From positions 1 through 26,495 of the forward strand of contig JAZSKX010000012.1 of NCBI GenBank assembly GCA_045535075.1: DNA of 26,495 bases, written 5' to 3'. Positions 2,258 through 26,495 of the stretch are shown piece after piece. This stretch comes from Candidatus Spyradenecus sp. Its GTDB lineage: Bacteria > Verrucomicrobiota > Verrucomicrobiia > Opitutales > UBA953. The notes beneath the pieces are model-generated. The model did no database searches. It was given only the letters and a program-made list of their open reading frames with translations, and was not told the origin of the DNA. Within the stretch, counting starts at the first letter, position 1. Every line of letters begins with the position of its first letter. The translations under genes and the position numbers were made by a program.

Positions 2258-3330
2258 AAATACTTCATGTGATTAATTCGCTTTCGACGGGCGGGGCGGA
2301 GAAGTTGGTGTCGGATTTGGCTCCGCTTCAGCGGGAACGCGGGCACACGGTTGAAGTGCTTTTGCTTCGCGGAGGCGAAAGCGTGTTTCGGGCAGGTTTA
2401 GAAAGTGCGGGAATCCGGGTTTATGATTTCGGCGCGGGAACGTCGGTTTATTCTCCGTTGAATATTTTTCGGTTGATTCCGTTTATGCGGAAATATGACG
2501 TGATACACGTTCATCTCTTCCCGGCGCAGTATTGGGTGGCGATTGCGAAAGTTTTATCGTTTTCAAATACGTGTTTGGTGACTACGGAACATTCAACTCA
2601 CAATCGTCGGAGGGATATTTCTTTTTTCCGATTTTTTGATAAATGGGTGTATCGGCGCTTTACGAAAATTGTAGGGATTTCTCCAAATACGACGGCTTCG
2701 TTGGAGCGATACTTGAAGACACCGGGAAGAGTTCAAACGATTTCAAATGGAGCAGACATCGGTAAGATTCACGAGGCGGAGGCTGTTCTTCGGGAACGTG
2801 TCGTTCCCGCTGTATGTCGGTTAATGTTGATGCAGGTTGCGGGTTTTCGAGAAGCTAAAGACCAGGATTGCGTTATTCGTGCCTTAAAAAATTTTCCTTC
2901 GGACGTTCATGCCGTTTTCGTTGGAGACGGCGTGCGGCGGGAGATTTGCGAAAAGCTCTCGGAAGAACTCGGCGTGCGAGAACGCGTGCATTTTCTCGGA
3001 ATCCGTTCTGATGTTCCTGCGCTTTTGAAATCTGCGGATGTTGTCGTGATGTCGTCGCATTGGGAGGGCTTTGGATTGGCGGCTGTTGAAGGCATGGCGG
3101 CGGGAAAGCCCGTTGTTGCGTCTGATGTCCCCGGGCTTGCGGAAGTGGTCGGAGGTGCGGGAATCCTTTTTCCGAAAGGCGATGAAAAAGCTCTTGGGGA
3201 AATTATTTTAAAACTCGTTTCGGACAAAGAATTTTACGAAAAAACCGCCGCAGCCTGTTCCCGTCGGGCGCAGGATTACGATATTCGCAAAACCGCTGAG
3301 GCGTATTTGGCGGTGTATGCGGGCGGATAG
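2254..3330 (+). CDS. Glycosyltransferase family 4 (GT-B)
   Basis: MKILHVINSLSTGGAEK N-terminus, HVHLFP, TEH, and WEGFGLAAVEGMAAGKPVVASDVPG (EX7E). Start set to the ATG at 2254, which overlaps the upstream stop (ATGA). Confidence 0.93.
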   Translation: MKILHVINSLSTGGAEKLVSDLAPLQRERGHTVEVLLLRGGESVFRAGLESAGIRVYDFGAGTSVYSPLNIFRLIPFMRKYDVIHVHLFPAQYWVAIAKVLSFSNTCLVTTEHSTHNRRRDISFFRFFDKWVYRRFTKIVGISPNTTASLERYLKTPGRVQTISNGADIGKIHEAEAVLRERVVPAVCRLMLMQVAGFREAKDQDCVIRALKNFPSDVHAVFVGDGVRREICEKLSEELGVRERVHFLGIRSDVPALLKSADVVVMSSHWEGFGLAAVEGMAAGKPVVASDVPGLAEVVGGAGILFPKGDEKALGEIILKLVSDKEFYEKTAAACSRRAQDYDIRKTAEAYLAVYAGG

Positions 3331-3439
3331 ATTTTGAGCTTTTCAGCGCGAATGCTTTTGCTCGAATACAATTAAGTAGACACTTGCTATGTTCATTTTT
3401 TTGGGGAAAATGCAAAATTTTCTATGGCTTTAAGCAATA

Positions 3440-3471
3440 AAAGTCTTGCGATCGGGTAATAAAGTCTTGCG
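3440..3471 (+). promoter_or_regulatory. 11-bp direct repeat AAAGTCTTGCG x2 upstream of the PEP-CTERM gene
   Basis: Exact copies at 3440-3450 and 3461-3471, a 21-bp period. The second copy runs into the palindrome CTTGCGCAAG (3466-3475). Function is inferred only. Confidence 0.4.
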
Positions 3472-3564: not shown

Positions 3565-4428
3565 ATGAAATTGAAAAACTTGCTTTTCCCTTGTTCGTTT
3601 TTTTTGTTGGCGGGAACGCCTTTGGTTTCTTTGGGCTCGGAACCCGAGGCATTTTTGACGGATGGTTTAGGGATTGATTGGTTCGGCTATCGCAGTAATA
3701 CGACAAAAACCGTTTTTTCTTATGAGGACGGAAAAACGACGATGACGAATTTGGATTCGGATTCGTATGTTTGGGGGTATTTACCGCAAGCAGTTTCATT
3801 GGAAGTCGGGCAAGCTCTCACATTTGCGGGAACGGCGACATTTAATTCCGTTGCATCGTCGGGAGCTTTTTACATCGGAATTTATAATAGCGGGGTAAAT
3901 GCAAAACCGGAGACGGGAGCTACGTTTTCGAGTATCGTCGCGGGAACCTACGATATGACGGGATTTTTTGGAGGGACGAATAAGAAGGCGAGCGGAACGA
4001 CGACGCATGTTTATTCCCGTTTTGCCGGAAAAGCTCCCGGGGCAAGCGGGAGCGGCGGAGCCGGTTTTATGACTTCAAATCAGGGGGCGGCTTATATTGC
4101 TTCCGCGTCTCCGGAGATGCAGATTGAGCATCCGAGCGCGAACGTCGCGTATGAATTTTCCCTGAAAATCCTTCGAACTGCGGCAGGTTATGATGTCTTA
4201 ATGGGCGACGGGGAGCCGGTTTCTTTTGTTTCCGAAAAATCGCCGGCTTCCGGAGTATTTGATGTGATTGCGATAAAGTCGCCGGGAAGCGGAATTACGC
4301 TTTCAAATTTTTCGATTTCGACGACGGGAACGGCGATTCCGGAACCGTCGATGTTCGGATTTTTCGCAGGGATTTTTTCACTTGCAGCGTTTGTAGCGCG
4401 AAGGAGACGAAGCGGGGAAAAGTTTTGA
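3565..4428 (+). CDS. Secreted PEP-CTERM (exosortase-sorted) surface protein, Ser/Thr/Gly-rich
   Basis: N-terminal signal-peptide-like segment. The C-terminus IPEPSMFGFFAGIFSLAAFVARRRR is PEP + transmembrane helix + Arg cluster. Confidence 0.9.
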   Translation: MKLKNLLFPCSFFLLAGTPLVSLGSEPEAFLTDGLGIDWFGYRSNTTKTVFSYEDGKTTMTNLDSDSYVWGYLPQAVSLEVGQALTFAGTATFNSVASSGAFYIGIYNSGVNAKPETGATFSSIVAGTYDMTGFFGGTNKKASGTTTHVYSRFAGKAPGASGSGGAGFMTSNQGAAYIASASPEMQIEHPSANVAYEFSLKILRTAAGYDVLMGDGEPVSFVSEKSPASGVFDVIAIKSPGSGITLSNFSISTTGTAIPEPSMFGFFAGIFSLAAFVARRRRSGEKF

Positions 4429-4517
4429 GTTTGCCTTAAAAATTTGTTTTGGGGCCCGGTGCTAGAAACCGGGAGTCGGCTTTCTTTAATCTCTCATTTT
4501 CTCCGAACTTTCCGATT

Positions 4518-4533
4518 TGGCACGGCTTTTGCT
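4518..4533 (+). promoter_or_regulatory. Sigma-54 (-24/-12) promoter of clpB
   Basis: TGGCACGGCTTTTGCT matches TGGCACG-N4-TTGCW exactly, with GG at 4519-4520 and GC at 4531-4532. It ends 17 nt before the clpB ATG. Confidence 0.75.
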
Positions 4534-4550
4534 GACGCTTTAAAGGTATT

Positions 4551-7157
4551 ATGGATTTCAATAAATTTACCGAAAAAAGCCGCGAAGCCATTACTTCCGC
4601 TCAAACGATTATGTCCGAGCACGGGAACCCGATGCTCGAAACCTGGCATTTGCTCGCCGCGTTACTCAAGCAGGACGGCGGTATCGTTCCCGCGCTCCTC
4701 GCGAAGATGAAAATCGACAATGCCGGTTTTTCTCAAAACATTGAACGCGAGCTTGCGCGTCTTCCGCGCGTGAGCGGCGGCGGGAACGTGCAACAGGGCG
4801 CGGCTTCGGGAACGATTCAAAAAGTCCTCGCCAAATCCGTCGAAGAAGCCCGCGCGCTCAACGACGATTTCGTCAGCACGGAGCATCTTTTCCTCGCGCT
4901 CCTTGCCGCCGCTCCGGAAATGAAGGAAATTTTTAGGGCTTTCGACATTTCCCGCAACGCCGTGCTCGCCGCACTCAAGGAATTGCGCGGAAACCAGCGC
5001 GTAACGAGCGACAACCCGGAAGCGACTTACGATGCACTCGGCAAATACGGCGTCGATTTGGTCGACATGGCACGCAAGGGCAAACTCGATCCCGTCATCG
5101 GGCGCGACGAGGAAATTCGCCGCGTCATTCAAATTCTTTCCCGCAAAACGAAAAACAATCCCGTGCTCATCGGCGAGCCCGGCGTCGGCAAAACCGCCAT
5201 CGTCGAAGGCTTGGCGCAACGCATCGTGCGAGGCGACGTTCCCGAAGGCTTGCGCGACAAAACCGTCTTTTCCCTCGACATGGGCTCGCTGCTCGCGGGA
5301 GCGAAATATCGCGGTGAATTTGAAGAACGCCTCAAAGCCGTTTTAACCGAAATTAAAAAATCCGACGGGCGCATCTTGCTTTTCATCGACGAACTTCACA
5401 CGCTTGTCGGCGCAGGCAAAACCGACGGAGCAATGGACGCCGGGAACATGCTCAAGCCGATGCTCGCACGCGGCGAATTGCACTGCATCGGCGCAACTAC
5501 GCTCGACGAACACCGCAAATACATCGAAAAAGATGCCGCGCTCGAACGCCGATTCCAAAGCGTGCTCGTCGAGCCGCCGAGCGTCGAAGACACGATTTCG
5601 ATTCTGCGCGGCTTGCGGGAACGCTTCGAGGTGCACCACGGCGTGCGCATCATGGACAGCGCCATGGTCGAAGCCGCCGTGCTTTCCAACCGCTACATTT
5701 CCGACCGCTTTTTGCCCGACAAGGCGATCGACCTCGTCGACGAAGCCTGTGCGCAAATCCGCACCGAAATGGACTCGATGCCGGAAGAGCTCGATTCGCT
5801 TTCCCGCCGCGTCATGCAACTCGAAATCGAAGAAACGGCATTGAAAAAAGAAACCGACGAAGCGTCGAAAATCCGCCTCGAAGCTCTGCGCAAGGAGCTG
5901 ACGGAAGCACGTTCCGAAGCGACCGCTCTGCGCGCGCGTTGGGAAGCGGAAAAGGAAAGCGTCGGAAAAATCCAAAAAATCCGCGCCGAACTCGAAACCG
6001 CGCGCCACGACGCGGAAGCCGCCGAGCGTTCCCGCGATTACAACAAAGTCGGCGAACTGCGCTACGGGAAAATTCCACAGCTGGAAGCCGATTTGAAAAA
6101 ATACGAGAAAATCGCCGAAGAAAAATCCGGCGGGAACGACAAGCTTTTCCGTGAAACGGTTTCGCCCGACGAAATCGCCGAAGTCGTCGCGCGCTGGACG
6201 GGCATTCCCGCTTCAAAATTGCTCGAAGGCGAAAAACAAAAATTGCTCGGTCTTCAAAGCGAACTCGAAAAACAGGTCATCGGACAGGAAGAACCCGTGC
6301 GCCTCGTTTCCGAAGCGATTTTGCGTTCCCGCGCCGGCGTGCAGAATCCGCGTCGCCCGGTCGGAAGTTTCCTCTTTCTCGGACCGACCGGCGTCGGCAA
6401 AACCGAGCTCGCCAAGAGCCTTGCGCGTCAGCTTTTCGACAGCGAAGACGCGATGATTCGTATCGACATGTCCGAATACATGGAAAAGCATTCCGTGTCG
6501 CGCTTGGTAGGTGCGCCGCCGGGCTACGTCGGTTTTGAGGAAGGCGGGCAACTCACCGAAGCCATTCGCCGCAAGCCGTATTCCGTCGTTTTGCTCGACG
6601 AAATCGAAAAAGCGCATCCGGATGTATTTAATATTTTATTACAAATTCTCGACGACGGGCGTTTGACTGACGGACAGGGGCGCACGGTCGATTGCCGCAA
6701 CGCCGTGTTTATTCTCACGTCCAACATCGGCTCGCGCTTCCTCGTCGAAGGCGTGGAAAACGATGCGATTCCGGAACGCGTGCGGGAACAGGTGATGGCG
6801 GAATTGCGCGCCGGATTCCGTCCGGAATTTTTGAACCGCATCGACGATATCGTTTTGTTCAAACCGCTTGGCTTGAAGCAAATTTCGGCGATTGTCGACT
6901 TGATGATTGCGTCGCTGAACAAACGCTTAGAAGAACACCGCATTACGGTTTCGCTCGACAAATCCGCTCACGCGTGGATTGCCGAAAACGGCTACGATCC
7001 CGTTTACGGGGCGCGTCCCTTGCGACGTTTTATCCAAAAGGAAATTGAAACGCCGCTGGCAAAGGCGATCATCGGCGGGAACGTCGCTGACGGGCAAACG
7101 GTGAAATTTTCCAAACCGAAATCCGAAGAATCCGGTTTAAAACTCTCCGCGAAATAA
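4551..7157 (+). CDS. clpB: ATP-dependent chaperone ClpB
   Basis: Clp N-domain, two AAA+ modules (GEPGVGKT and [14 protein letters not shown] and LLDEIEKAH), coiled-coil middle domain, GYVG pore loop, GARPLRR; 868 aa. Confidence 0.97.
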
Positions 7158-7160
7158 GTG

Positions 7161-7201
7161 AAAAAATAAGAACTCCGGCGAAACCGGAGTTCTTATTTTT
7201 T
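7161..7201. terminator. Bidirectional intrinsic terminator between convergent clpB and rodZ-like genes
   Basis: Perfect 18-bp inverted repeat AAAAAATAAGAACTCCGG-cgaaa-CCGGAGTTCTTATTTTTT with A and T tails. Confidence 0.9.
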
Positions 7202-7218
7202 TGTCTGATTGAGCTGTT

Positions 7219-8031
7219 TTATTTTGCTGGATCAATCAGCCAAGAGGTGCGATCGGAGGTCATCTGGCGCGGATTGGTTCCGAGCGGAATCAGATTGGCG
7301 TTTCCGGCGTTGGTGAAGGATTCTTTGGAAGGATATTTAATTTTACTTCCCGAAGGGACTTCCTCCCGAATGTAAAGTTTGCCGCGGGCGGTGATTTTCT
7401 TGGGGCGTCCGACGGGAACGAATTCGTCAAGAATGATTGCTCCGGCGATTGGCTTGCCGTTTTCCCAGCCTACGTATTGCTCGTGAATGGTGATTTTCTG
7501 CGGTTGATTGGTCGTGATTTCGATTTCGTAAGCAGGTGTGTTGCTAACGGCAGTCGCGGCATCCGTTGCGGCTACGTCGTTTTCGGGCGTGCACATTTTA
7601 AGCGCAAAGACGGATACGCCGGCAATCAGTAAAATCGCGGCGGCTGCCACGGCGATGGCGAGTTTGCGCGGTGTACGGACGGAGGTCGGCGGCGGCGGGA
7701 ACGAAGTCGTTCCGAACGGGTCTTCGGCATCGGTATTTTCCGTGACGGCTTGCTTAATCGGGGAGAGTCGGAATGCGCTTCGGGTGCCCGATGCCTTTGC
7801 GTTGCCGGACTCCTTAAATTCTGCAACGAGGGCGTCGGCGTTGAGTTTTAGTAATTTTGCGTAAATGCGGAGAAACCCGATACGGTAAACGGGAGCGAGG
7901 TCGATGGAGTCAAAATCGTCGTTTTCCATCGCGATGATATAATGACGGCGAATATGCGTGCGGTCGGATGCACTGCGTTCGTCGAATCCGAGTTTTTCCC
8001 GTGCTTCTTTGAGTTGTTGTCCGATGCTCAT
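7219..8031 (-). CDS. rodZ: RodZ-like protein (N-terminal HTH, single TM helix, extracytoplasmic C-terminal domain)
   Basis: MSIGQQLKEARE...THIRRHYIIAMENDDF...YRIGFLRIYAKLLKL is the RodZ HTH pattern, followed by the TM segment LAIAVAAAAILLIAGVSVF. Confidence 0.72.
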   Translation of the reverse strand: MSIGQQLKEAREKLGFDERSASDRTHIRRHYIIAMENDDFDSIDLAPVYRIGFLRIYAKLLKLNADALVAEFKESGNAKASGTRSAFRLSPIKQAVTENTDAEDPFGTTSFPPPPTSVRTPRKLAIAVAAAAILLIAGVSVFALKMCTPENDVAATDAATAVSNTPAYEIEITTNQPQKITIHEQYVGWENGKPIAGAIILDEFVPVGRPKKITARGKLYIREEVPSGSKIKYPSKESFTNAGNANLIPLGTNPRQMTSDRTSWLIDPAK

Positions 8032-8087
8032 GATTTTCTACAATTCAATGCTTGTTCGTTTTTATCGCAAGTTTTTTTGCGGCTGTT

Positions 8088-8990
8088 TTATGGGATGATG
8101 ACTTTTACCGTTGCACCGAGTTTGTTGACGTGCATTTTTCGGACACGCCAGTGAATGGACAAAGTATCACAGAAATCGGCGATTTCGTTGCCGAATCCGT
8201 CGTCATCATTTTTTACGACGGCGACAATTGTGGGACCGGCTCCGGAGACGTATGCGGTAACGGCGTTGTCGGATTCTTTAATAAAGTTGAACACTTTTTC
8301 GCCTTCGGGAACGAGTTTGAGGCGGTAGCTTTGGTGAATACGATCTTTACATCCGGCGCGGATAAGTTGTACGTCTGCTTTTTCCAGCCCTTCGAGAAGA
8401 ATCGGAATGCGTGACATATTGTAAATACAATCCGAGAGTCCGTAGGATGTCGGGAGGATCGCGCGGGCTTCTTCGGTGGAAACGCGAACGTCCGGCATGA
8501 GGGCGTAAAAACTGATGGCATCCGAAATCGGATAAACGTGCCAGTAGACGAAATCGTTTTCAATAATTGCGGCGACGAATCCTCCCAAAATCGCGGGAGC
8601 AACGTTGTCCGGGTGTCCTTCAATGAGCGAGGCGATTCGCAGGATTTCGGCTTTGTCGAAATTGAGCCCGGCAATTTGGTTTGCCGCCATAATTCCTGCG
8701 ACGATGCAGGTGGAGCTGGAGCCGAGCCCGCTACAAAGGGGAAGGTCGGTATCGAAGTGAATGCTCAGCGGCGGGACCTGACGCCCGTAGCTGGTGAGAG
8801 TCTTGGCGAGGGTTGTGTAAACAAGGTTTGTTTCTGCGCTTGCAAATTCCGGCTCGCAACCCGTGATGGTAAGCCCTTCGCCTCCGGTTTCGAATGTGAA
8901 GCGGTTAAACATATCGAACGCAACGCCCATAACGTCGAATCCCGGGCCGACGTTGGCGCTGGTTGCGGGAACGGAAATTTTAAATCGCAT
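8088..8990 (-). CDS. thrB: Homoserine kinase (GHMP family)
   Basis: VPATSANVGPGFD, PLCSGLGSSS, EGHPDNVAPA, DRIHQSYR and SGAGPT motifs. Start moved to the ATG at 8990 (MRFKISV). Confidence 0.95.
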   Translation of the reverse strand: MRFKISVPATSANVGPGFDVMGVAFDMFNRFTFETGGEGLTITGCEPEFASAETNLVYTTLAKTLTSYGRQVPPLSIHFDTDLPLCSGLGSSSTCIVAGIMAANQIAGLNFDKAEILRIASLIEGHPDNVAPAILGGFVAAIIENDFVYWHVYPISDAISFYALMPDVRVSTEEARAILPTSYGLSDCIYNMSRIPILLEGLEKADVQLIRAGCKDRIHQSYRLKLVPEGEKVFNFIKESDNAVTAYVSGAGPTIVAVVKNDDDGFGNEIADFCDTLSIHWRVRKMHVNKLGATVKVIIP

Positions 8991-9079
8991 AATCGGTTTG
9001 TAAATCGGAGGAAGTGATTTATGTTTCAACAAATTAAATACAAAAGCGTTTCCCGCGAAAAGCATGAAAGCGGGAACTA

Positions 9080-9119
9080 AGAAAATGCCGGTTGCAAACT
9101 CCGGCAACCGGCATTTTCT
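9080..9119 (-). terminator. Strong hairpin downstream of the response regulator, probable terminator
   Basis: Perfect 16-bp inverted repeat AGAAAATGCCGGTTGC-aaactccg-GCAACCGGCATTTTCT, about 25 nt after the stop at 9145. Confidence 0.75.
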
Positions 9120-9144
9120 AGAGTAAAATTGGGCTTAAACCCGA

Positions 9145-9624
9145 TTAGCCTCGGCGGAGCTTTTCGAGAAGAACGCTTTGGTCGAGAATCGGCATGTAGT
9201 CTTCGTGCGCAATGCCTTTTTCGAGAATGAAAAGCGTGAGGAGGTGTTTTGCCTGAGCGAGAAGCTCGTGCGGTTTCCACGGTTTTTCAAAATACGAATC
9301 GATATGGGCTTCGTTGACGGCGCGAATCGTATCGGCATGCGTGGCTTGCCCTGTGAGCAGGATTTTGCGCGTTCCCGCGAAGCGTTCGTCTTTGGAGATT
9401 TCTCCGAGGAGGTCGACTCCGTTTTTCCCGGGCATGACGTGGTCGGAGATAACGAGCCCGAGTTGGTCGCCGGAATCTGCGATTTCGTTAAGAAGGGTTT
9501 GCACTGCGGCGGCGGATTCGCATTCTTCGATGCGGAAGAATTTTGCGAGCGGACGGAGATCTCGCAAGACGGAGTCCAAAACTTCGGGTTGATCGTCGAC
9601 GCAGATAATATTGATTTTTTCCAT
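9145..9624 (-). CDS. Stand-alone response regulator (receiver domain, no recognisable output domain)
   Basis: MEKINIICVDDQ...VISDHVMPGKNG (phospho-Asp)...LLTGQ...EKPW. Start set to the ATG at 9624, giving 159 aa. The longer track ORF overlaps the kinase out of frame. Confidence 0.9.
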   Translation of the reverse strand: MEKINIICVDDQPEVLDSVLRDLRPLAKFFRIEECESAAAVQTLLNEIADSGDQLGLVISDHVMPGKNGVDLLGEISKDERFAGTRKILLTGQATHADTIRAVNEAHIDSYFEKPWKPHELLAQAKHLLTLFILEKGIAHEDYMPILDQSVLLEKLRRG

Positions 9625-9686
9625 GGAATGTAAGTGCTGTTGTGTTTTCGTGCTGGGAAAGATAATCGGACGGTTGGAAGAAAATT

Positions 9687-11090: not shown

Positions 11091-11145
11091 GGGAAGGGGA
11101 TTTTAAGGGTAAATTAAAAGCAACGGAGCGATTTCGCGGGAACGA

Positions 11146-14209: not shown

Positions 14210-14223
14210 TTAACCGCGTGAAA

Positions 14224-15845: not shown

Positions 15846-15862
15846 TTCAACAAGCAATAACG

Positions 15863-16678: not shown

Positions 16679-16696
16679 CACAAATAGCCGAATCAG

Positions 16697-16735: not shown

Positions 16736-16817
16736 GTATTTCGATTTTAACGATTAGATTTCGGAAAATTATTTTCTGTTGGAGACGCTTTGAAAATAGC
16801 TTTATTGTCAATGTATT

Positions 16818-17816: not shown

Positions 17817-17832
17817 ATTTAATTTTTCCCCG

Positions 17833-18735
17833 ATGAAAATCGCGATTGTCGGAGCCGGAGCCATCGGCACGTTTTACGGCGTAAAGCTTGCGCAAGCCGG
17901 ACATGATGTCCGTTTCCTTTTGCGTAGCGATTACGAGGTTGTTCGAAAAAACGGATTTGAAGTTCACGACTGCGGAAACGTTTTCTGCGTTCCCGTGAAT
18001 GCGCATAAAACGCCGGAAAGTATCGGCGTTTGCGATCTCGTTTTTGTCGCGCTTAAAACAACGGCAAACGCACATTATTCGGATTTGATTGCGCCGCTTG
18101 TCGGCGCGGGAACGCGCATTCTCACCGTCCAAAACGGCTTGGGAAATACGGAAAAACTTTGCGAGCTTTTCGGTACGCAAAATGTTCTCGGCGGAATTTG
18201 CTACGCAACGATTAATCGAACGGCGCCGGGCGTCGTCAAGACCAACGGTCGCACGCTACTTTGGATTGCTGAACCGGAAGGTTTGCCGCAAGAGCGTACG
18301 CGGGAACTCGCCGCGATGTTTACGTCTGCCGGACTCGCCGCCGAAGCGCAGGATTCTTTGGCGGCAATGCTTTGGAAAAAACTTTGTTGGAATGTTCCGT
18401 TCAACGGGCTTTGCATCGCCGGCGGCAATATTGATTGTGCGCAACTCATGGCTTCGCCGGAATTGATTGAGTTGTCGTGGGCGCTTATGCGGGAACTGCA
18501 GGCGGCGGCGCGCGCCATCGGAGTGGAAATTTCCGATTCGCATTTACAAAAACAGGTGGACGTTACCGTGAAATGCGGCGCGTATCTGCCGTCGAGCTTG
18601 CTTGATTTTCGTGCCGGGCGTCCGGTTGAAGTCGAATCTATTTGGGGCGAGCCGTTGCGTGTCGCCCGTGCCGCCGGCGTTCCCGTGCCGCATCTCGAAA
18701 CGCTTTATTGGCTTTTGAAAAAACTTTGTCGCTGA
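17833..18735 (+). CDS. panE: 2-dehydropantoate 2-reductase (ketopantoate reductase family)
   Basis: MKIAIVGAGAIG, VALK, QNGLG, WKKLCWNVPFNG, SSLLD and EVESIWG. Start set to the ATG at 17833. Confidence 0.88.
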   Translation: MKIAIVGAGAIGTFYGVKLAQAGHDVRFLLRSDYEVVRKNGFEVHDCGNVFCVPVNAHKTPESIGVCDLVFVALKTTANAHYSDLIAPLVGAGTRILTVQNGLGNTEKLCELFGTQNVLGGICYATINRTAPGVVKTNGRTLLWIAEPEGLPQERTRELAAMFTSAGLAAEAQDSLAAMLWKKLCWNVPFNGLCIAGGNIDCAQLMASPELIELSWALMRELQAAARAIGVEISDSHLQKQVDVTVKCGAYLPSSLLDFRAGRPVEVESIWGEPLRVARAAGVPVPHLETLYWLLKKLCR

Positions 18736-18768
18736 GCGGTTATTTGCGGGAGAATCAAATTCTAAGCG

Positions 18769-20835
18769 ATGTCGGACGGCGTTTTCACAAGCGGCGAAAA
18801 GCCTTTCAAGCTCTCATCGGAATTTAAACCGACGGGCGATCAGCCGCAGGCAATCGACCTCATCGCCCGAAGCGTCGAGCGTGGGAACAAATATCAGACA
18901 CTGCTCGGCGTAACCGGCTCCGGAAAAACTTTCACGATGGCGAACATCATCGAGCGCGTTCAACGCCCGACACTCATCATTTCGCACAACAAAACGCTCG
19001 CCGCCCAGCTTTATTCCGAGTTCAAACACTTTTTCCCCGACAACGCCGTCGAATATTTCATCAGTTACTACGATTATTATCAGCCGGAAGCCTACGTTCC
19101 CGCGACGGATACTTATATCGAAAAAGATTCCGCGATTAACGATGACATTGAGCGGCTGCGCATCGCGGCAAGCTCGGCTTTGCTTTCGCGACGCGACGTC
19201 ATCGTCATCGCGTCCGTTTCCTGCATTTACGGCTTGGGCTCGCCTCAGGATTTTCGCGAAATGATGATTCCGATGCGCGTCGGGATGCGCCTGCGCCGCG
19301 ACGAATTGCTCGAACGCCTCGTCGCCAACATTTACCGCCGCAACGATATCGAGCTGGAGCGTTGTTCATTCCGCGTGCGCGGCGACACCGTCGATGTTTT
19401 TCCCGCGTATATGGAAACTGCGATACGCATCACGTTTTTTGACGACGAAGTCGAAAGCATTCGCGAGCTTGATCCGCTCACCGGACGCGCGGGAACGAAG
19501 CTGAACCGCTTTGATTTGTATCCGGCAAGTCAATACATCACGACGCGGGAACGCATCAATGAAGCTATCGGGAAAATTCAAAACGAGCTCGAAGTGCAGG
19601 TTGCGAAGTTCGAGCGCGAAGGCAAATTGCTCGAAGCGCAACGCATCCGTATGCGCACGGAAAACGATATCGAAATGCTCCGCGAAACGGGCTTTTGCTT
19701 CGGCATCGAAAACTATTCCATGCACATAGGCGGACGCACGCCGGAGCAACGCCCGTGGTGCCTGCTGGACTTTTTCCCGAAGGATTTTCTCGTTTTCATC
19801 GACGAATCGCACGTTACGCTTCCGCAGATTCACGGCATGTCGCACGGCGACCGTTCCCGCAAAAACCGCCTTGTGGAATTCGGATTTCGCCTGCCGAGCG
19901 CCGTCGAAAACCGCCCGCTCAAACCGGAGGAATTTGACGAAGTCGTTCCGCAAACCGTTTTCGTTTCCGCCACGCCGGCGCCGTTCGAGCTGGAAAATTC
20001 CGCTGTCGTTGCCGAGCAGATTATCCGTCCGACGGGCTTGCTCGATCCCGTGATGGAAGTGCGCCCGATTAAGGGACAAATCGAAGACGTGATTCACGAA
20101 ACGACGCTCGCGATTGAGCGCGGCGAACGCGTGCTTGTTACAACGCTCACAAAGCGCATGAGCGAAGATATTTGCGAATTCATGCGGGAACGCGGAATGC
20201 GCGCCGAATATTTGCATTCCGACATCGACGCGATTGAGCGCGTGGAGATTTTGCGCCGCCTGCGCCAAGGCGCGTTCGACGTTCTCATCGGCGTCAATTT
20301 GCTCCGCGAAGGCTTAGACATTCCGGAAGCCGCGCTCGTAGCGATTCTCGATGCCGACAAGGAAGGATTTTTGCGTAGCGAAACCTCGATCATCCAAACG
20401 GCGGGACGCGCCGCGCGCCACGAAAACGGACGCGTTATTCTTTACGCGGACGTGATGACGCAGTCGCTCGCTCGCGCAATCGCAATTTGCCAACTGCGGC
20501 GGGAACGCCAGACGGCTTACAACGCCGAGCACGGAATTACGCCGCGCGGCGTGCGTCGCGCCGTGCAGGAAAGCCTGCTTCCGCCGCCGGACGAAGATGC
20601 GGGAACGCTGCTGATGGCGGCGGAAGGCGCGGGCGACGAAGATGTCGCCGCCGTGCTCGCAGAGCTCGAAGAGGAAATGCTCGCCGCTGCCGATCGTCTC
20701 GAATTTGAGAAAGCCGCATTGTTGCGCGACCAAATTGCCCTGCTCAAAAAAGGCGCGGCGGGAACGCCCGCTTCCGCGAAAAAATCCAAACCGTATTTTC
20801 CCGCCGTCAAAGCCAAAGCGCGCCGGAGAAAGTAG
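18769..20835 (+). CDS. uvrB: Excinuclease ABC subunit B
   Basis: PTGDQP, GVTGSGKT, YYDYYQPEAY beta-hairpin, DESH, NLLREGLD, QTAGRAAR and the C-terminal UVR domain (FEKAALLRD). Confidence 0.98.
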   Translation: MSDGVFTSGEKPFKLSSEFKPTGDQPQAIDLIARSVERGNKYQTLLGVTGSGKTFTMANIIERVQRPTLIISHNKTLAAQLYSEFKHFFPDNAVEYFISYYDYYQPEAYVPATDTYIEKDSAINDDIERLRIAASSALLSRRDVIVIASVSCIYGLGSPQDFREMMIPMRVGMRLRRDELLERLVANIYRRNDIELERCSFRVRGDTVDVFPAYMETAIRITFFDDEVESIRELDPLTGRAGTKLNRFDLYPASQYITTRERINEAIGKIQNELEVQVAKFEREGKLLEAQRIRMRTENDIEMLRETGFCFGIENYSMHIGGRTPEQRPWCLLDFFPKDFLVFIDESHVTLPQIHGMSHGDRSRKNRLVEFGFRLPSAVENRPLKPEEFDEVVPQTVFVSATPAPFELENSAVVAEQIIRPTGLLDPVMEVRPIKGQIEDVIHETTLAIERGERVLVTTLTKRMSEDICEFMRERGMRAEYLHSDIDAIERVEILRRLRQGAFDVLIGVNLLREGLDIPEAALVAILDADKEGFLRSETSIIQTAGRAARHENGRVILYADVMTQSLARAIAICQLRRERQTAYNAEHGITPRGVRRAVQESLLPPPDEDAGTLLMAAEGAGDEDVAAVLAELEEEMLAAADRLEFEKAALLRDQIALLKKGAAGTPASAKKSKPYFPAVKAKARRRK

Positions 20836-20862
20836 GAGCGCTTCGGGTTTTGCGAACGTGTT

Positions 20863-21795
20863 TTATCCGTTCCCGTGAGACTTTTCCAAATCGCGCCGGG
20901 CCTTGCTTCGAGTAACGAGATAGACACCGAAAAACACACTCATTGCCGCAAGCAGTTTTGTCCATGTAAAATGATCTTGCGCGACCGCGATGGCTAGGGC
21001 GCAGGCAACGATCGGCTGGACGTAATTGTACATGCTGGCACTCGTCGGGCGAATGCGTCGCACAGCCATCGGAATGAGCAGGTAAGCGAGAAAAGTTGCG
21101 CCGATGAGAACATATGCCATTGCTGCAATTGTTTGAAAGTCTGCGGGAACGATGAACATTCCTCCGGGGCGAAGCATCGCGGGAACGGTGAGCGGCGCGA
21201 CTTCCAAAACGGCAAAAAGAAACATCCATTTCATCATTGTTACGGCCTGATATTTTTCCGAGATCGGCTTGGAAAAAACGAAGTAAAGCGCGTAGATAAA
21301 ACTGCTGCCGAAGATACAGAGATTTCCTGCGAGGCTTGAGGCGGAAGCATTCTCCGAAGTCGTTGCAGAAAGCAGAACGAGCCAAATTGCACCGCCCGCG
21401 CCGACAAGTACTCCCGCTGTTTTCAGCCATGTAATCGGTTCCCGAAGAAAAATCGCTGCAAAAAGCATTACGATAATCGGCGTTCCCGTCGTAATCACGG
21501 ATGCATCGATCGGCGAAGTCATGCTTAAGCCCCAAATGAAAAGCGACTGATTCCCGGCGATTCCGCAAAGCGAGCAGGCAAAAAGTACGGCGATTTCCTT
21601 GAACTTGAGTTTCTCTTTCGGAAGGAAAAATGAAATCCCCCAGAAAAGCACGCAGGCGGCGAGCATGCGGGAAAGCGTATGAAATTCCGGTGTGAGCCTA
21701 CCGTCGAGCAACCATTTCGAAATCGGATAATTAATTCCGAAAATCAAATTCGCCGTAAAAATCAGCAAATGTCCTTGAATGCGTTCTTTAGTCAT
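20863..21795 (-). CDS. EamA/DMT family transporter (downstream paralogue)
   Basis: About 10 TM helices in two EamA repeats, TSPIDASVI, LREPIT and YNYVQPIVA. Confidence 0.9.
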   Translation of the reverse strand: MTKERIQGHLLIFTANLIFGINYPISKWLLDGRLTPEFHTLSRMLAACVLFWGISFFLPKEKLKFKEIAVLFACSLCGIAGNQSLFIWGLSMTSPIDASVITTGTPIIVMLFAAIFLREPITWLKTAGVLVGAGGAIWLVLLSATTSENASASSLAGNLCIFGSSFIYALYFVFSKPISEKYQAVTMMKWMFLFAVLEVAPLTVPAMLRPGGMFIVPADFQTIAAMAYVLIGATFLAYLLIPMAVRRIRPTSASMYNYVQPIVACALAIAVAQDHFTWTKLLAAMSVFFGVYLVTRSKARRDLEKSHGNG

Positions 21796-22714
21796 TTTTT
21801 GCCTTCGGGAGTTCCCGCGATTCGCTGCGCGTAACGATGTAGAGACCGCTCAAAACGGCGAGTGTTGCGAGGATTTTTTCCGGCGTAACAACGTCTTGAG
21901 CGAGTAGGGCTGCGAGCAAAAATGCGACAATCGGATGAATTGTGTTGTACATGCTTGCAGTTGTCGGTCGAATTCGTCTCACCGCCATCGGAATCAGCAG
22001 GTAGCCTAAAAACGATGTACCGAAAAACACGAATGCGATTGCCGCCCAAGCTTTGGCGTCGAGCGGCGCAAGAAGTAAAGTTTCGGCGCTTGCCATCGCG
22101 GGAACTGTGAACGGAAGGACTTGTAGCGTCGCGAAGAGAAACATCCATTTCATCATTGTCGTCGCCCGATATTTTTCCGAAAGCGGCTTGGAGAAAACGA
22201 AGTAAATCGCGTAAACAATACCGCTTGCAAATACGAGCAGATTGCCGAGCAAGCTTGATGCCGCGTTCCCGCTGCCGGGCGTCGTCGACTGGATTATCAG
22301 CCATGTAGCTCCCGCGGCGCCCAGCAAAACGCCGATTACTTTTTCCCGTGTTAAAGCTTCCCGAAGAATCAGCGCCGAAAACACAAGCACGAGAATCGGA
22401 CGTCCCGTCATGATGACCGAAGCGTCAATCGGCGATGTCTGCGCCAGCCCCCAAACAAAAAGCAGTTGATTGCCCGTAATTCCTCCGATTGAACACAGAA
22501 AAAAAATGCCGATTTCTCTGCGGGAAAGCTTTTCGCCCGGTAAAAAAAGTGAAAGTCCCCAAAACAAAACACAGGAGGCAATCAGGCGTACGGATAAATA
22601 AAAATCCGGAGTCAGATGCGTCGACAAAAGCCATTTCGAAATCGGGTAGTTGAGTGCAAAAATCAACGCCGACGCGAAAATCAGTAAATGTCCGATGATA
22701 CGCTCTTTTGCCAT
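21788..22714 (-). CDS. EamA/DMT family transporter (upstream paralogue)
   Basis: Same architecture as its neighbour. Start set to the ATG at 22714 (MAKERIIGH aligns with MTKERIQGH). Overlaps the next gene by 8 nt. Confidence 0.9.
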   Translation of the reverse strand: MAKERIIGHLLIFASALIFALNYPISKWLLSTHLTPDFYLSVRLIASCVLFWGLSLFLPGEKLSRREIGIFFLCSIGGITGNQLLFVWGLAQTSPIDASVIMTGRPILVLVFSALILREALTREKVIGVLLGAAGATWLIIQSTTPGSGNAASSLLGNLLVFASGIVYAIYFVFSKPLSEKYRATTMMKWMFLFATLQVLPFTVPAMASAETLLLAPLDAKAWAAIAFVFFGTSFLGYLLIPMAVRRIRPTTASMYNTIHPIVAFLLAALLAQDVVTPEKILATLAVLSGLYIVTRSESRELPKAKND

Positions 22715-23033
22715 TTTATTTCCCGCCGAAAATACGCTCTTCACTTCCGAAAGAAAATCGAAAAACTTTCCGGATAGAGGATGAAGTCATGGCGTGGCGG
22801 TGAAGCGTAAGGATTATTTTTTCACGGGAACGCCGCGACCTTCTTTGCCGATTTTTCATTCTTGTATTCAAGACTGATTGCTTCTTGTTTCGTTGTGTTC
22901 TTGGCGGGGGATTTTGTTTTCTCACGAAGCGGGCAAGGCTCACTAGGCTTTGAGGCGGATTGTTCAGAGATGTTACGGCATAACCTCAAAACGTTTTGCG
23001 TTTGCGGCGGGAATGCGTAATGCTCAGGCGGAT

Positions 23034-25682
23034 ATGCCAAGCGAAGAGCGAGCGGAGAATTTGCCTATTTTTGAACTGCGGGAACGTCTGAAAACTGCGT
23101 GCACGCGCTCTCGGCGCATCGTTCTCCAAGCGCCTACCGGTTCCGGGAAATCGACGCAGATTCCGCAGTTTTTGCTCGACGACGCGCTCGTTCCCGCCGG
23201 CAAACAAATTGTCGTGCTTCAGCCGCGCCGACTGCCGACGCGTATGCTCGCCGCGCGCATTGCGCGGGAACGCGGGCAAAATCTCGGCGGAGAAGTCGGC
23301 TACCAAATTCGTTTCGACCGTATCGAATCCGCGGATACGCGCATTAAATTTGTCACGGAAGGCTTGTTGCTACGCCAATTACTGGGCGGGAACGCGGCAG
23401 ACTCCGAAAAAATCGGCGCGATTGTTTTCGACGAATTTCACGAGCGGCATCTTTATTCGGATTTAACGCTTGCGTTTGCTCTGGAGCTTCAGCGCACGAC
23501 ACGCCCGGATTTGCTCATCATCGTGATGTCGGCAACGCTCGACACGGATTCGCTTGCCGCTTGGCTTGCGCCCTGCGAAACGCTGACGGCTCAAGGGCGC
23601 ATGTTCCCCATCGAAATCGAATATTCGGCAGCGGGCGGCGCAACCCGATTTGCGGGAACGCAGATGCGCAACGGATTTTTGCCGCGCTATGCGGTTTGGG
23701 ATCATGCGGCGGCGGCGTTTCGCAAAGCGTTTCACGCGGAGCCGGAGGGCGATTTTCTTATTTTCATGCCGGGTGCGTATGAAATCACAAAAACGATTGC
23801 GGCGATCGCGGGAACGCCGGAAGGGCGCGAATGTGCGCTGCTGCCGCTTTACGGCGAACTTTCCGCCGCCGAGCAGGATCGCGCCGTGGCGCCTGCGCCT
23901 GCGGGAACGCGCAAAGTCGTCGTCGCCACAAACGTTGCGGAAACGTCGCTGACGATTCCCGGCGTGCGCGTCGTGATTGATTCCGGCTTGGCGCGCATTG
24001 CGCGTTACGATCCGCATCGCGGCATCAACATGCTTCTTATTGAAAATATTTCGCAAAGTTCCGCCGACCAGCGTGCCGGGCGGGCAGGGCGAACCGCGCC
24101 GGGACGTTGCGTGCGGCTTTGGTCGCGTGCGGATCAGCAAAATCGCGCCGTGCGCGACGTTCCCGAAATCCGTCGTGTCGAACTCTCGGAAACGCTTTTG
24201 CTTTTAAAGGCTGGAGGTATTGAAAATTTGGATACGTTCCCGTGGTTTGAAAAGCCGGAAGCGCACGCGCTGGAAAAATCGCTGGAGCTTCTACGCGATT
24301 CGGGCGCGCTCGACGCGGCGGGAAAACTCACGCGCACGGGCGCGGCGATGGCGCGTTTCCCGCTTCATCCGCGCTACGCACGCATGATGATTGCCGCGAA
24401 CGAGCTCGGTTGCTTGCGTCAAATCGCCTTCGTCGCGGCGATGGCGCAGGGGCGCGACATTATGCTCGAACTCGCCGATCGCCGACGTAGCGAAGACCGC
24501 GAAGATTTGCTCGGCGAAACGGATTCCGATTTTTTCCATCGTCTGACACTGCTCGGCATGGCGCGAAAAAAGGATTTTGATTTCGAGTTTTGCAAGCGTT
24601 GGGGCATTCATGCGGGTGCGGCGCGGCAGGCGGATCGGCTCGCGGCACAGTTTTTGAAAATTGCGGAAAATGTTTTTGCGCGGGAACGCCGCGAAAGAGA
24701 AACGTTGTCGGCGGGAACGTCGGGTGCGCCGGACGTTTCTCCCGATATTTATGATGCCGTTCGCCAATGCCTTTTGCTCGGGTTCGTCTCGCAACTGGCG
24801 CGGCGCGTTGATGCGGGAACGCTGCGTTGCAAGCTCGTTCACGGGCGTAGCGGCGAGTTGCGGCGCGGGAGCGCGGTGCGGCACGCGAGGCTCTTGGTCG
24901 CGGCGGAAGTGGAGGAAATTCAGACGCGCGGTGAAGTTACGGTTTTCCTTTCGCTTGCGACGGCGGTCGAAGAAGCTTGGCTTGAAAAATATTTTCCCGA
25001 AGATTTTGAAACGCGCGACACGGTGAGCTTTGATGCGGCGCAAAAGCGCGTGCTCACGCGGCGGGAACGCGTGTTTCGCGGACTCGTACTGAGCTCACGG
25101 GAACTGCCGGATGTCGTGAGCGATGCGGCTTCGCGTATGCTTGCGGATGAGGTGATTGCCGAGCGGCTTGTTTTGGAAAAATGGGATACGCAGGTCGAAG
25201 CGTGGATTAACAAAGTGAATTTTGCCGCGAAGCATTGCCCGGAGCTCGGCATCGCGACGCTTGATGATGACGGGCGGCGCATGCTTGTGGAGGAGCTTTG
25301 CCTCGGAGCGACGGCTTACAGGGATATTCGAGAAAAATCCGTTTGGAAAACGCTTCGAGGCTGGCTCTCACAGGAGCAGGAAATGGCGATGGACTCGCTG
25401 TTGCCGGATTCGGTTTCGCTCCCGCGCAAACGCCATCCCGCGAAAATCGTTTACACCGCAGATTGCGAGGCGGTTATCGGCGCGACGGTGCAGGAACTTT
25501 ACGATTGCCCGGGCGAACGCTTAAGAATTTGCGGCGGGAACGTGCCGCTCATCGTCGAAGTGCAATCACCGGCGCGGCGTACGGTTCAGCGCACGGCGGA
25601 CTTGGACGCGTTTTGGAAAACATCTTACGAGCACGTAAAAAAAGACCTCAAAGGCCGCTACCCGAAGCACGAATGGCGGTGA
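23034..25682 (+). CDS. hrpB: ATP-dependent DEAH-box RNA helicase HrpB
   Basis: LPI, APTGSGKST, QPRR, DEFHER, MSATL, ATNVAETSLTIPG, QRAGRAGR, HPR and the HrpB C-terminal FW..SY..VKKDLKGRYPKHEW. Start at 23034 is approximate. Confidence 0.93.
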   Translation: MPSEERAENLPIFELRERLKTACTRSRRIVLQAPTGSGKSTQIPQFLLDDALVPAGKQIVVLQPRRLPTRMLAARIARERGQNLGGEVGYQIRFDRIESADTRIKFVTEGLLLRQLLGGNAADSEKIGAIVFDEFHERHLYSDLTLAFALELQRTTRPDLLIIVMSATLDTDSLAAWLAPCETLTAQGRMFPIEIEYSAAGGATRFAGTQMRNGFLPRYAVWDHAAAAFRKAFHAEPEGDFLIFMPGAYEITKTIAAIAGTPEGRECALLPLYGELSAAEQDRAVAPAPAGTRKVVVATNVAETSLTIPGVRVVIDSGLARIARYDPHRGINMLLIENISQSSADQRAGRAGRTAPGRCVRLWSRADQQNRAVRDVPEIRRVELSETLLLLKAGGIENLDTFPWFEKPEAHALEKSLELLRDSGALDAAGKLTRTGAAMARFPLHPRYARMMIAANELGCLRQIAFVAAMAQGRDIMLELADRRRSEDREDLLGETDSDFFHRLTLLGMARKKDFDFEFCKRWGIHAGAARQADRLAAQFLKIAENVFARERRERETLSAGTSGAPDVSPDIYDAVRQCLLLGFVSQLARRVDAGTLRCKLVHGRSGELRRGSAVRHARLLVAAEVEEIQTRGEVTVFLSLATAVEEAWLEKYFPEDFETRDTVSFDAAQKRVLTRRERVFRGLVLSSRELPDVVSDAASRMLADEVIAERLVLEKWDTQVEAWINKVNFAAKHCPELGIATLDDDGRRMLVEELCLGATAYRDIREKSVWKTLRGWLSQEQEMAMDSLLPDSVSLPRKRHPAKIVYTADCEAVIGATVQELYDCPGERLRICGGNVPLIVEVQSPARRTVQRTADLDAFWKTSYEHVKKDLKGRYPKHEWR

Positions 25683-25798
25683 TTATAAAAGCGGCTAGGC
25701 GATTTTCGGACGAATCATTTGATGTAAAAATGTGCAATGAAAAAGCCCTTACCTGATCGTCGCCGGACAGCTGTTCCCGCATAAAACGTAATCTTCGT

Positions 25799-26495
25799 TC
25801 ACAAGCTAAAATTACAAGCAAAGCAGTGGGCGCTTTTCATTTTGCCCCTTTTAAAAGTCGCACACCAACTCCAGCCGCCTTGTTCTTGGATGGGGTCGCG
25901 GGAGAGGAAGCGGCCGAGCGAGGGGGAATAGTGGCGGTAGTTGTAGTAAACGAGGTCGAGTTCGGAGTCGTAGTATTCCGACGACCATTGGAAGTTTTGG
26001 ACAACGTCGTTTTCGGAAGCGGTAACGGAACCGAACGGAGTGTAGGAATACGCCGTGCGGATGTAACCGTTCGGTCCGAAAAGTTCGCAGACGTTTTTCG
26101 TGATGTCGTAGCCATAGGTGAACCACGTGCCGTCCTTTTGGATTGCGAGCGGACGCGTCGCGGTCGGCTGAGACGGATTCCAAGTAACGAGCCACAAAGC
26201 CGGATGCGCCGAACGCGTTAAATCGAGCGCCGCAATTTGCAAATACCCGCGGTAAATGTAGCGGTGATGCAGCATCGTCGTTCCCGCAACCGTTACTTTC
26301 TTCTCAAACCGCCGCCCCTGCGAATCGTAGGCGCATTCCACGACGGTTTGCGTTCCCGCGTTTTCAAAGCGCACCGGGCGGTTTTCCGCGTTGTAGGCGA
26401 TTGTCCACGTTCCCGTGGAAGTGCGGATGAGCGTTGCATTCCCGTCCGCGTCATACGCCAACGCCTCCACCACGCCTTCGGCGCGGTCCCCCTCC
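25799..26495 (-). pseudogene. Rhs (YD-repeat) core fragment, cut by the window edge at the 5' end and truncated before the DPxG/toxin domain
   Basis: YDADGN, YNAENRP, YDSQGRR, YSYTPFG and FQWSSEYYDSELDLVYYNYRHYSPSLGRFLSRDPIQEQGGW, then 23 unrelated residues and a stop. Confidence 0.75.
26464..26495. repeat. Possible REP-like palindromic element (CCTCC-ACCACGCC-TTC-GGCGCGGT-CCCCCTCC), cut by the window end
   Basis: 8-bp hairpin with one mismatch (a G-U pair on the minus strand), flanked by CCTCC repeats. Resembles CCCCTCC-hairpin-CCCCCTCCCC intergenic repeats, recalled rather than searched. Confidence 0.45.

Follow-up and report, generated by a model that had tools for sequence, protein, structure and literature searches.

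The stretch of DNA analyzed here (the window; 26,495 nt, contig C13 of the Candidatus Spyradenecus sp. genome that we denote G000) is densely populated by a short nonpalindromic word, CGGGAACG, most often preceded by G to give GCGGGAACG, which recurs across the genome and in all 19 species of one GTDB genus (g1). On the strength of sequence statistics, we propose that R-CGGGAACG-c represents a self word of this genus, kept by a force acting at the DNA level and that it is most likely an uptake signal resembling the DNA uptake sequence (DUS) of Neisseriaceae and the uptake signal sequence (USS) of Pasteurellaceae, a proposal for which our confidence and our doubt are evenly balanced. An earlier note on the window had suggested such a signal; every testable sequence-level hallmark of a DUS/USS-like word agrees with that suggestion except dialects, which were not found, as was also the case for ComEA and a receptor, and uptake that depends on the motif is what we infer from the hallmarks that are present.

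Exact copies of GCGGGAACG in the window number 60, dispersed from 2331 to the last copy at 26351 to 26359 and divided between the plus (39 copies) and minus (21 copies) strands, exactly as had been estimated from a manual count; 100 dinucleotide-preserving shuffles of the window gave a mean of 0.85 and a maximum of 4 copies, and none of them reached 60. The 8-mer core CGGGAACG occurs 85 times on both strands (521 to 26359), the additional 25 copies having A (17 copies, ACGGGAACG), T (6 copies), or C (2 copies) in place of the initial G, which again matches the earlier count of about 25 further copies altered mostly to ACGGGAACG. The start of the signal, placed at 2331 by the earlier note, is correct for the exact 9-mer and has to be moved for the core, since three 8-mers with a first base other than G lie upstream, the first of them at 521. 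The word had been described as lying in coding and intergenic DNA alike, and this was confirmed: 53 of the 60 exact copies are located in open reading frames (ORFs) and 7 (at 11136, 12563, 12582, 14225, 14266, 14287, and 16718) in the 1.5 kb of intergenic DNA.

The enrichment extends far beyond the window. In the G000 assembly (18 contigs, 1,949,087 nt, rated 99.45% complete and 0.13% contaminated), GCGGGAACG is present in 3244 copies (1.66/kb; 1581 forward and 1663 reverse) and exceeds 1 copy/kb on 14 of the 18 contigs, including all 13 that are at least 16 kb long, the other four (2.0 to 3.7 kb) having 0 to 1.0 copies/kb. The core is present in 5159 copies, which corresponds to 2.6/kb, or one per about 373 to 378 nt, and to 2.1% of the genome, and CGGGAACG and GCGGGAACG head the word lists at every k from 8 to 11. 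Markov models of order 0, 1, and 3 predict 69, 183, and 587 copies of the core, respectively, so that the excess over the order-0 expectation is 75-fold. The aligned copies yield the logo Y-Y-R-CGGGAACG-c, with G in 63% and A in 25% of the copies at position -1 and C in 47% at position +1, and beyond positions -3 to +1 the flanks are uninformative except for a periodicity of 3 that coding DNA contributes. The mismatch profile, which had been suggested as a check, is sharp: one-base variants of the core are mostly 10 to 100 times rarer than the core itself, and the commonest, at core positions 4, 6, and 8, are still 6 to 9 times rarer; on this profile, positions 1, 2, and 5 are predicted to tolerate change least.

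A simple gene call on G000 (1459 genes, 86.5% of the genome) places 84% of the copies in coding DNA, at a density of 2.56/kb compared to 3.20/kb in intergenic DNA. Shuffling of synonymous codons removes 89% of the coding copies (4317 observed versus 472 ± 18, with a maximum of 505 in 20 shuffles), and this null is conservative, because the word itself has inflated codon usage; the enrichment therefore survives codon-aware as well as Markov nulls, the checks that the earlier note had called for. The copies occupy all six frames, most often xCG-GGA-ACG (1500 copies) and an antisense frame that reads Val-Pro (1187 copies), and 60% of the copies are in sense orientation. The effect on the encoded proteins is considerable. 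The tripeptide Ala-Gly-Thr (AGT) is spelled GCG-GGA-ACG, i.e., GCGGGAACG, in 994 of 1215 occurrences, compared to about 7% predicted by codon usage, and the most overrepresented tripeptides of the proteome are translations of the word (VPA, 5.1-fold; AGT, 5.0-fold; RER, 3.7-fold; TGT, 3.6-fold; VPV, 3.1-fold; RSR, 2.8-fold), whereas the five permutations of A, G, and T that served as controls occur at 0.94- to 1.24-fold. The force that maintains the word acts at the DNA level and is strong enough to alter proteins.

The phylogenetic range of the word is narrow. The closest relatives by UvrB similarity carry the titles Opitutales bacterium, Candidatus Spyradenecus, and Candidatus Spyradosoma and come from ruminant, bird, and human gut samples, in agreement with the assignment of the window to a probable Opitutales lineage. 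In each of the 16 loci whose UvrB identity is 79 to 100%, CGGGAACG outranks every other 8-mer (0.95 to 5.1/kb, at GC contents of 0.48 to 0.65), and it is absent from the next-ranked loci, L017 to L030, among the 80 UvrB relatives listed. A pattern count of the 9-mer across the family, with the reversed word as a control, showed enrichment in 19 of 19 species of g1 (340 to 5581 copies versus 34 to 88 for the control). Fifteen g1 genomes are word-rich, with 3060 to 5581 copies, and four are word-poor: G035, G050, G052, and G056, with 760, 746, 732, and 340 copies, respectively. In 82 genomes of four sister genera the count is 6 to 176, with the control mostly equal to or above it, and the word is not enriched in 145 genomes representing 38 further families of the order, with at most 196 copies each. 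The survey of related genomes that had been recommended thus confines the word to one clade. Sister genus genome G001, with a GC content of 0.55, contains 11 copies of CGGGAACG in 500 kb, compared to 15 expected.

The search for dialects, also recommended by the earlier note, came out negative both in the sister genera sampled and in the word-poor species G035 and G056: samples of 500 kb from G001 and of 57 to 100 kb each from G003, G004, and G005 contain no comparable word of their own. Three candidates were considered and rejected, namely, (i) CCACCAACC in G056, which forms local arrays at contig ends; (ii) AGATTAAAG in G035, which forms a local array in one locus; and (iii) CGGGTACG in G001, which ranks first in the initial 100 kb but amounts to 48 copies versus 15 expected in 500 kb and lacks a logo. 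Several repeats of a different kind were observed along the way. Contigs of about 5.7 to 6.1 kb in G056 (L117 and L120 to L126) bear dense arrays of cCACCACCAACCc at their ends, with 81 copies of CCACCAACC in 87 kb, and may represent terminal repeats of a multicopy element. Intergenic clusters of short tandem repeats of the AGATTAAAG type occur in G035 at L111 (G035:C5:1-20000), which holds 38 of 40 copies found in 108 kb. A longer low-copy repeat, GGTAGGGACGAC, is found 13 times in 500 kb of G001 (loci L144 to L183), and a CCCAGGGCGTTGCC-like unit is found about 14 times in 60 kb of G004 (loci L154 to L158); both are far from a density comparable to that of CGGGAACG.

Comparison of G000 with its congeners indicates that the word is under active maintenance. 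In blocks shared by G000 and G048, in which other positions are 2.2% different, 255 sites are common to both genomes, 10 are restricted to G000, and 16 are restricted to G048; the retention of sites in these 98%-identical blocks is consequently 94 to 96%, compared to 83.5% if the sites were neutral. The picture is different for G035, a backbone relative with 20% divergence, in which 45 of 211 G000 sites (21%) are intact, close to the neutral expectation of 16%, while 45 of 62 G035 sites (73%) are intact in G000. Identities of RluF place the word-poor species G035, G050, and G052 beside G000, with the word-rich G015 and G019 outside and G056 separate. The simplest reading of this arrangement is a word-rich ancestor whose state persists in G000, with two separate losses, one in the G035 clade and the other in G056. 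These comparisons show active maintenance of the word in most lineages, set against a near-neutral rate of decay in two.

DNA that is likely to be foreign is poor in the word. Among the 20 longest motif-free stretches of G000 (3.1 to 5.4 kb) there are islands of low GC content as well as two regions whose GC content resembles that of the host. The latter two belong to Mu-like prophages, located at approximately 183 to 221 kb of C16 and 20 to 33 kb of C8 and recognized by matches to PHROGs (Gam, transposition proteins A and B, terminase, portal, and protease), in which the density of the word is 0.65 to 1.2/kb versus 2.6/kb for the genome, i.e., 2 to 4 times lower. Within the window, a motif-poor stretch of low GC content (0.42) at 1 to 2300 carries glycosyltransferase genes and only three 8-mers, exact 9-mers being absent; it probably represents surface polysaccharide DNA of acquired origin. 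It forms part of a glycosyltransferase cluster at the contig end (1 to 3330; GC content, 0.42 to 0.46; GT2, an unassigned 435-aa ORF, and GT4) that is probably a horizontally acquired surface polysaccharide locus.

The word also participates in terminator-like structures. Inverted pairs of the form CGTTCCCG-N6-16-CGGGAACG occur 146 times in G000, of which 134 are intergenic and 126 are followed by a T run or preceded by an A run, and the reverse arrangement is uncommon; such pairs contain about 6% of the copies in the genome and about one-third of those in intergenic DNA. In the window, an intrinsic terminator-like hairpin is situated 3' of a DUF3298 gene (16695 to 16739, plus strand), with a 14-bp stem, GGCGTTCCCG...CGGGAACGCT, and a subsequent T run. 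The site at 16695 to 16729 ranked first in a terminator scan of 4000 to 23999, and the predicted RNA fold (-26.8 kcal/mol; z = -5.3) was not equaled in stability by any of 200 shuffles. Downstream of iPGM, two consecutive inverted-pair hairpins (14223 to 14310, plus strand) have the forms CCGTTCCCG-N8-CGGGAACGG and GCGTTCCCGC-N12-GCGGGAACGC, the latter with a T-rich tail, and the second of them (near 14264 to 14297) folds at -23.0 kcal/mol (z = -3.6). The formation of terminator stems, which the earlier note cited as part of the DUS/USS signature, is well borne out by these numbers and by the folding of the window examples. The T-rich 5' flank that had been ascribed to intergenic copies was confirmed and corresponds for the most part to the A/T-rich loop of the inverted-pair hairpins.

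The genomes of the genus are extensively mosaic. When the window was compared to 16 related loci, uvrB alone (18757 to 20836, plus strand) could be aligned, and its flanks were unrelated even at 98.6% DNA identity, the value found for G048 (locus L001), where 30 differences leave the protein 100% identical. The similarity begins about 12 to 22 nt before the ATG and ends just past the stop codon, the differences are evenly spread, and 7 of 8 motif sites in uvrB are common to both genomes. High identity to G048 is also seen for other plus-strand genes of the window: clpB (4551 to 7157; 98% DNA identity to G048, 97% to G002, and 87 to 89% to the backbone species G035, G050, and G052), iPGM (12633 to 14209) and proS (about 14265 to 15847), which together span 12633 to 15847 and are each 99% identical to G048 copies located there on different contigs, a zinc-type alcohol dehydrogenase (ADH) gene (16817 to 17794; 99%), and the aligned part of hrpB (22986 to 24500; 99%). 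Altogether, these six genes are 98 to 99% identical to G048 and 94 to 97% identical to G002, and each lies elsewhere in those genomes. A motif-rich run of backbone genes on the minus strand (7219 to 12480), encoding a helix-turn-helix (HTH) protein, a GHMP kinase, a response regulator/histidine kinase, and pfk, behaves differently, with 78 to 84% identity to G035, G050, and G052 and at most 78% identity, or no match, in G048. The three backbone species match every gene of the window at 78 to 90%. In the intergenic region between the divergent pfk and iPGM, two direct copies of the word, 19 nt apart, were found by motif search at 12563 to 12590 on the plus strand. The nine blocks of one or two genes that make up 4551 to 26495 are located on different contigs or at different positions in all 18 other g1 species (76 to 99% DNA identity), and a second 20-kb sample of G000 (C1:100001-120000) shows the same mosaic pattern.

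An identity profile of 400 kb of one G048 contig (C11:1-400000) against G000 revealed that the distribution is bimodal: 80.5 kb, or about 20% of the sample, is 94 to 100% identical, in approximately 42 blocks of 0.4 to 5.1 kb, 161 kb is 64 to 88% identical, and the interval from 88 to 94% accounts for 0.4 kb. Thus, about one-third of the G048 DNA that aligns to G000 is 94 to 100% identical, and in G000 the blocks are all found at separate locations. The distribution for G035 versus G000 is unimodal (66 to 92%). Gene order in the genus is exceptionally fluid: relative to G048, the order in G000 is interrupted at nearly every gene, and relative to G035 it is interrupted at intervals of a few kilobases, with collinear blocks of up to 11 kb. 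A corresponding exchange test of G035 against a clade A sample (13.9 kb aligned, with one 984-nt block of at least 96% identity) was set aside, the sample being too small to use. Allele identity declines in the order G048, G002, G007, and G039/G046, which places the exchanged G000 alleles inside the G048 clade, and G000 therefore looks like the recipient. An assembly artifact as the source of the mosaic was rejected on the basis of the region from 16800 to 22800, for which contigs were retrieved from four runs of four studies (X1, X2, X4, and X5), one of which may be the source sample: an X1 contig (10,234 nt) spans the entire region, an X4 contig (4,755 nt) spans 16800 to 21078, an X2 contig (3,135 nt) spans 17312 to 20446, and X5 contigs span the uvrB/EamA junction, so that independent contigs from three other studies bridge the junctions. 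The species is represented in 20 metagenome runs from 9 studies. These data indicate that exchange between species sharing the word is recent, massive, and gene sized, and a shared uptake signal would favor such exchange among word-sharing species; along with the higher density of the word in the exchanged blocks (3.3/kb), this exchange is an indirect hint of preferential uptake.

The genes that would be needed for uptake are largely present. Profile searches of G000 identified ComEC, DprA, and ComM, a type IV pilus cluster with the order GspE/PilB-PilT-PilB-PilC/GspF, an Amuc_1098-type secretin with PilM-like and Amuc_1100-like neighbors, and seven prepilin-type genes. Four of the latter are consecutive (C1:259100-266264) and adjoin ruvX, with recJ located three genes beyond rluF. 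Of the competence genes that the earlier note had proposed to look for, ComEC, DprA, ComM, and pilin-like genes (seven) were found, together with PilB, PilT, PilC, and the secretin; ComEA was not found, and a ComP-like receptor was not identified.

On this basis, a mechanism can be outlined as follows: (i) cells of this gut Opitutales genus would preferentially bind and import DNA that bears the word, through a type IV pilus, the secretin, and ComEC; (ii) DprA, RecA, and ComM would then recombine the imported fragments into the chromosome; (iii) as word-bearing fragments would be imported more often, mutations that create the word would spread and those that destroy it would be replaced (molecular drive); (iv) the word would therefore come to fill coding and noncoding DNA wherever the protein tolerates it, and even alter protein sequence; and (v) inverted pairs would have been co-opted as stems of transcription terminators. 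We infer that the word would be read at the uptake step.

Several considerations weigh against this proposal: (i) the case for an uptake signal is drawn from genome sequences, and the organism is known only from metagenome assemblies; (ii) ComEA, which is required for uptake in the Gram-negative systems studied, was not found in G000, where the HHH_3 and TIGR00426 profiles match only an 805-aa ORF, below the cutoff, that is probably Tex-like; (iii) the competence genes found are widespread in bacteria without known transformability, control searches having given matches in 5 to 13 of 14 model genomes, and their presence in G000 therefore does not show competence, and they were surveyed within g1, so that their presence does not discriminate this genus from its sister genera; (iv) the word-poor species G035, G050, G052, and G056 keep intact ComEC, DprA, PilT, and secretin genes; (v) dialects of the kind known from Neisseriaceae were not found in the relatives sampled; (vi) the spacing of copies is near exponential (coefficient of variation, 1.10), i.e., about random and no more even than random; (vii) exchanged blocks with ends precise to the ORF and with nonsyntenic positions are not predicted by simple homologous replacement after transformation, and the vehicle of exchange could be transformation, transduction by Mu-like phages, or another process; and (viii) the higher density of the word in exchanged blocks (3.3/kb at a GC content of 0.547 versus 2.3/kb at 0.530 in low-identity blocks) may reflect their higher GC content or a conserved class of genes. 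The transposable Mu-like phages could contribute to rearrangements and exchange.

The word-poor species amount to a natural experiment on the reader of the word. Among ComEC, DprA, PilT, the secretin, and the seven pilins, no gene was lost in these species where examined. The four-pilin cluster, located by means of its neighbor rluF, is intact and syntenic in G035, G050, and G052, the three species to which the synteny applies; the three single pilins occur throughout the 19 species, one of them with a TGA codon in G056 and one split over two contigs in G052. Since the candidates are intact where the word decays, the experiment yielded no reader. A second, shorter secretin (ORF of about 775 to 880 aa; PF00263, E value of about 1e-42) occurs in 7 of 19 species (G015, G019, G035, G050, G052, G056, and G058) and is absent from G000; as it is present in three word-rich species as well as in all four word-poor ones, it is uninformative with regard to the decay.

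An explanation that we regard as unlikely, but that accommodates several of the observations above, is that the word is kept by another sequence-specific DNA transaction, either a bias in repair or gene conversion or a self mark for a nuclease or defense system, which the decaying lineages would have lost. Active maintenance in most lineages, together with neutral decay in two that keep all competence genes tested, is what such a system would produce; ComEA was not found in G000, and the depletion in prophages fits any self mark. For HIP1 of cyanobacteria, a word of similar density, a link with a methyltransferase or with VSP-type repair has been proposed, and G000 possesses three HsdM-type and two C5 methyltransferase genes. 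The described HIPs, however, are all palindromic, whereas this word is not, and methylation, which the earlier note had listed as an alternative, gained no support when the C5 family was surveyed across the 19 species: C5 methylases (PF00145) occur in 10 of them without relation to word density; 8 word-rich species lack these enzymes, and 3 of the 4 word-poor species have them. One of the C5 genes of G000 lies in a motif-free stretch of low GC content (C12:44633-48942; GC content, 0.40), the other lies in the motif-poor region of the C8 Mu-like prophage, no N6_N4 methyltransferase was found by profile search in G000, which was also the genome searched for HsdM-type genes, and type I enzymes read bipartite sites, unlike a contiguous 8-mer. 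A VSP-like mechanism is at odds with the finding that variants with a transition at either of the two CpGs show no particular depletion (CGGGAACA, for example, has 800 copies), and a nuclease self mark would imply near-zero selection per site, which leaves the accumulation to 2.6/kb and the reshaping of the proteome unexplained.

It is improbable, in our assessment, that the word is a recombination junction, i.e., a microhomology or recombinase target whose abundance is tied to the shuffling and exchange of genes. This idea draws on the disrupted gene order between G000 and both G048 and G035, on the coincidence of exchanged block ends with ORF ends, and on the proximity of block ends to the word, as 21% of 86 ends lie within 10 nt of an 8-mer, a proximity shared by 6% of gene boundaries and 7% of randomly chosen positions, several junctions being located exactly at the motif arm of a terminator. 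Nevertheless, 79% of the block ends are away from the word, terminators sit at gene ends anyway, so that some coincidence is expected, and a role in junctions does not explain the 84% of copies that are single and intragenic, distributed over all frames. No candidate recombinase was found, although no search aimed at one was made.

A strand-polar guide such as Chi or the FtsK-directing KOPS/AIMS is highly improbable. As with those guides, the word is short, G-rich, and overrepresented genome-wide, and in 86 windows of 20 kb, 54.7% of the copies are on the G-rich strand versus 45.3% on the other, with a correlation of 0.58 to GC skew. Such guides are strongly polarized, however, and the small excess seen here arises because the word is G-rich and 60% sense oriented; the 75-fold excess is far beyond that of Chi, and inverted pairs are common. 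The strand split, which had been named as a check and is free of Chi/KOPS-type polarity, thus effectively refutes this reading. The two most skewed 20-kb windows (9 plus/66 minus and 11 plus/55 minus copies) are accounted for by two giant genes (4791 and 4270 aa) on the minus strand at C5:125845-140217 and C8:185333-198142, respectively. Least credible of all is a by-product of codon, dipeptide, or terminator preference, or a REP/MITE repeat without a function of its own, for which the dominance of the xCG-GGA-ACG frame and the use of the word in terminator hairpins could be cited, and which is effectively refuted by the codon-aware null, by the use of six frames and the intergenic density of 3.2/kb, by a flank logo that leaves no room for a longer repeat unit, and by sister genera of similar GC content that lack the word, as the G001 counts show.

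Returning to the uptake signal, the combined reading of our data is that an uncultured ruminant gut genus of the PVC group independently evolved such a signal, as the third lineage after Neisseriaceae and Pasteurellaceae and at about twice their cited density of about 1/kb, that the signal drives gene-by-gene exchange between species, as seen in the approximately one-fifth of a congeneric genome that is 94 to 100% identical and relocated in single-gene blocks, and that it was switched off in two lineages; we advance this combination tentatively, with somewhat more reserve than trust. In the full-text literature searched, neither CGGGAACG nor its complement was found described as an uptake word, and no publication linking uptake sequences with Opitutales was found; among papers in which "DNA uptake sequence" and Verrucomicrobia appear together, none appears, from title and abstract, to describe such a signal. 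A 2025 preprint (10.1101/2025.10.24.684340) treats uptake-enhancing sequences (DUES) as a property of Neisseriaceae and Pasteurellaceae, in its framing the only two proteobacterial families with documented sequence-specific uptake, and reports frame bias and terminator localization, both of which resemble the properties of the g1 word. Judging by these sources, a comparable self tag in this bacterial branch appears to be previously undescribed.

If the word is indeed an uptake signal, an independent case in a distant phylum would make self-recognition in DNA uptake a recurrent solution, would offer a receptor unrelated to ComP, and would explain the exchange of core genes among gut Verrucomicrobia. 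Should that reading be wrong, a nonpalindromic 8-mer that takes up 2% of a genome, has reshaped the encoded proteins, and is switched off in two lineages would still point to an undescribed drive at the DNA level. In practice, the word is a near-perfect marker for metagenome binning and for the separation of host from foreign DNA in this group, as well as a design rule for future genetic tools.

To conclude, the word can be placed among the known systems as follows. With Chi and KOPS/AIMS it shares the character of an overrepresented G-rich octamer, those words being read by DNA machines, but they are polarized on the leading strand and far less enriched, whereas the g1 word is split 55:45. 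HIP1 is closer, as an 8-nt word of similar or higher density that is found in coding DNA and maintained at the DNA level; it differs in being palindromic and linked to a methyltransferase, while the g1 word is asymmetric and is not tracked by C5 methylases. The DUS of Neisseriaceae is read by the minor pilin ComP, and a ComP-like receptor was not identified in G000, in whose genus decay of the word has left the seven pilin-like genes intact; dialects, too, were not found around g1, where four sister genera and one deeper sample lack a comparable word. The statistical signature, the terminator pairs, the clade restriction, the type IV pilus genes, and the interspecies mosaic genes are, on the other hand, held in common with DUS. 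In comparison with the USS of Pasteurellaceae, the g1 word differs in sequence, belongs to the PVC group rather than to Gammaproteobacteria, is about twice as dense (8-nt core, 2.6/kb; 9-mer, 1.7/kb) as the approximately 1/kb cited by the earlier note, is limited to one GTDB genus instead of a whole family, and occurs in G000 without a detected ComEA. The receptor is unproven in both systems, and the likeness is otherwise extensive: both have a short nonpalindromic core with weak flanking preferences (a 9-nt core with weaker flanks in the case of USS), copies by the thousand on both strands, within genes as well as between them, a bias in reading frame with an effect on peptide content, inverted pairs that form terminators, and an occurrence common to related species.

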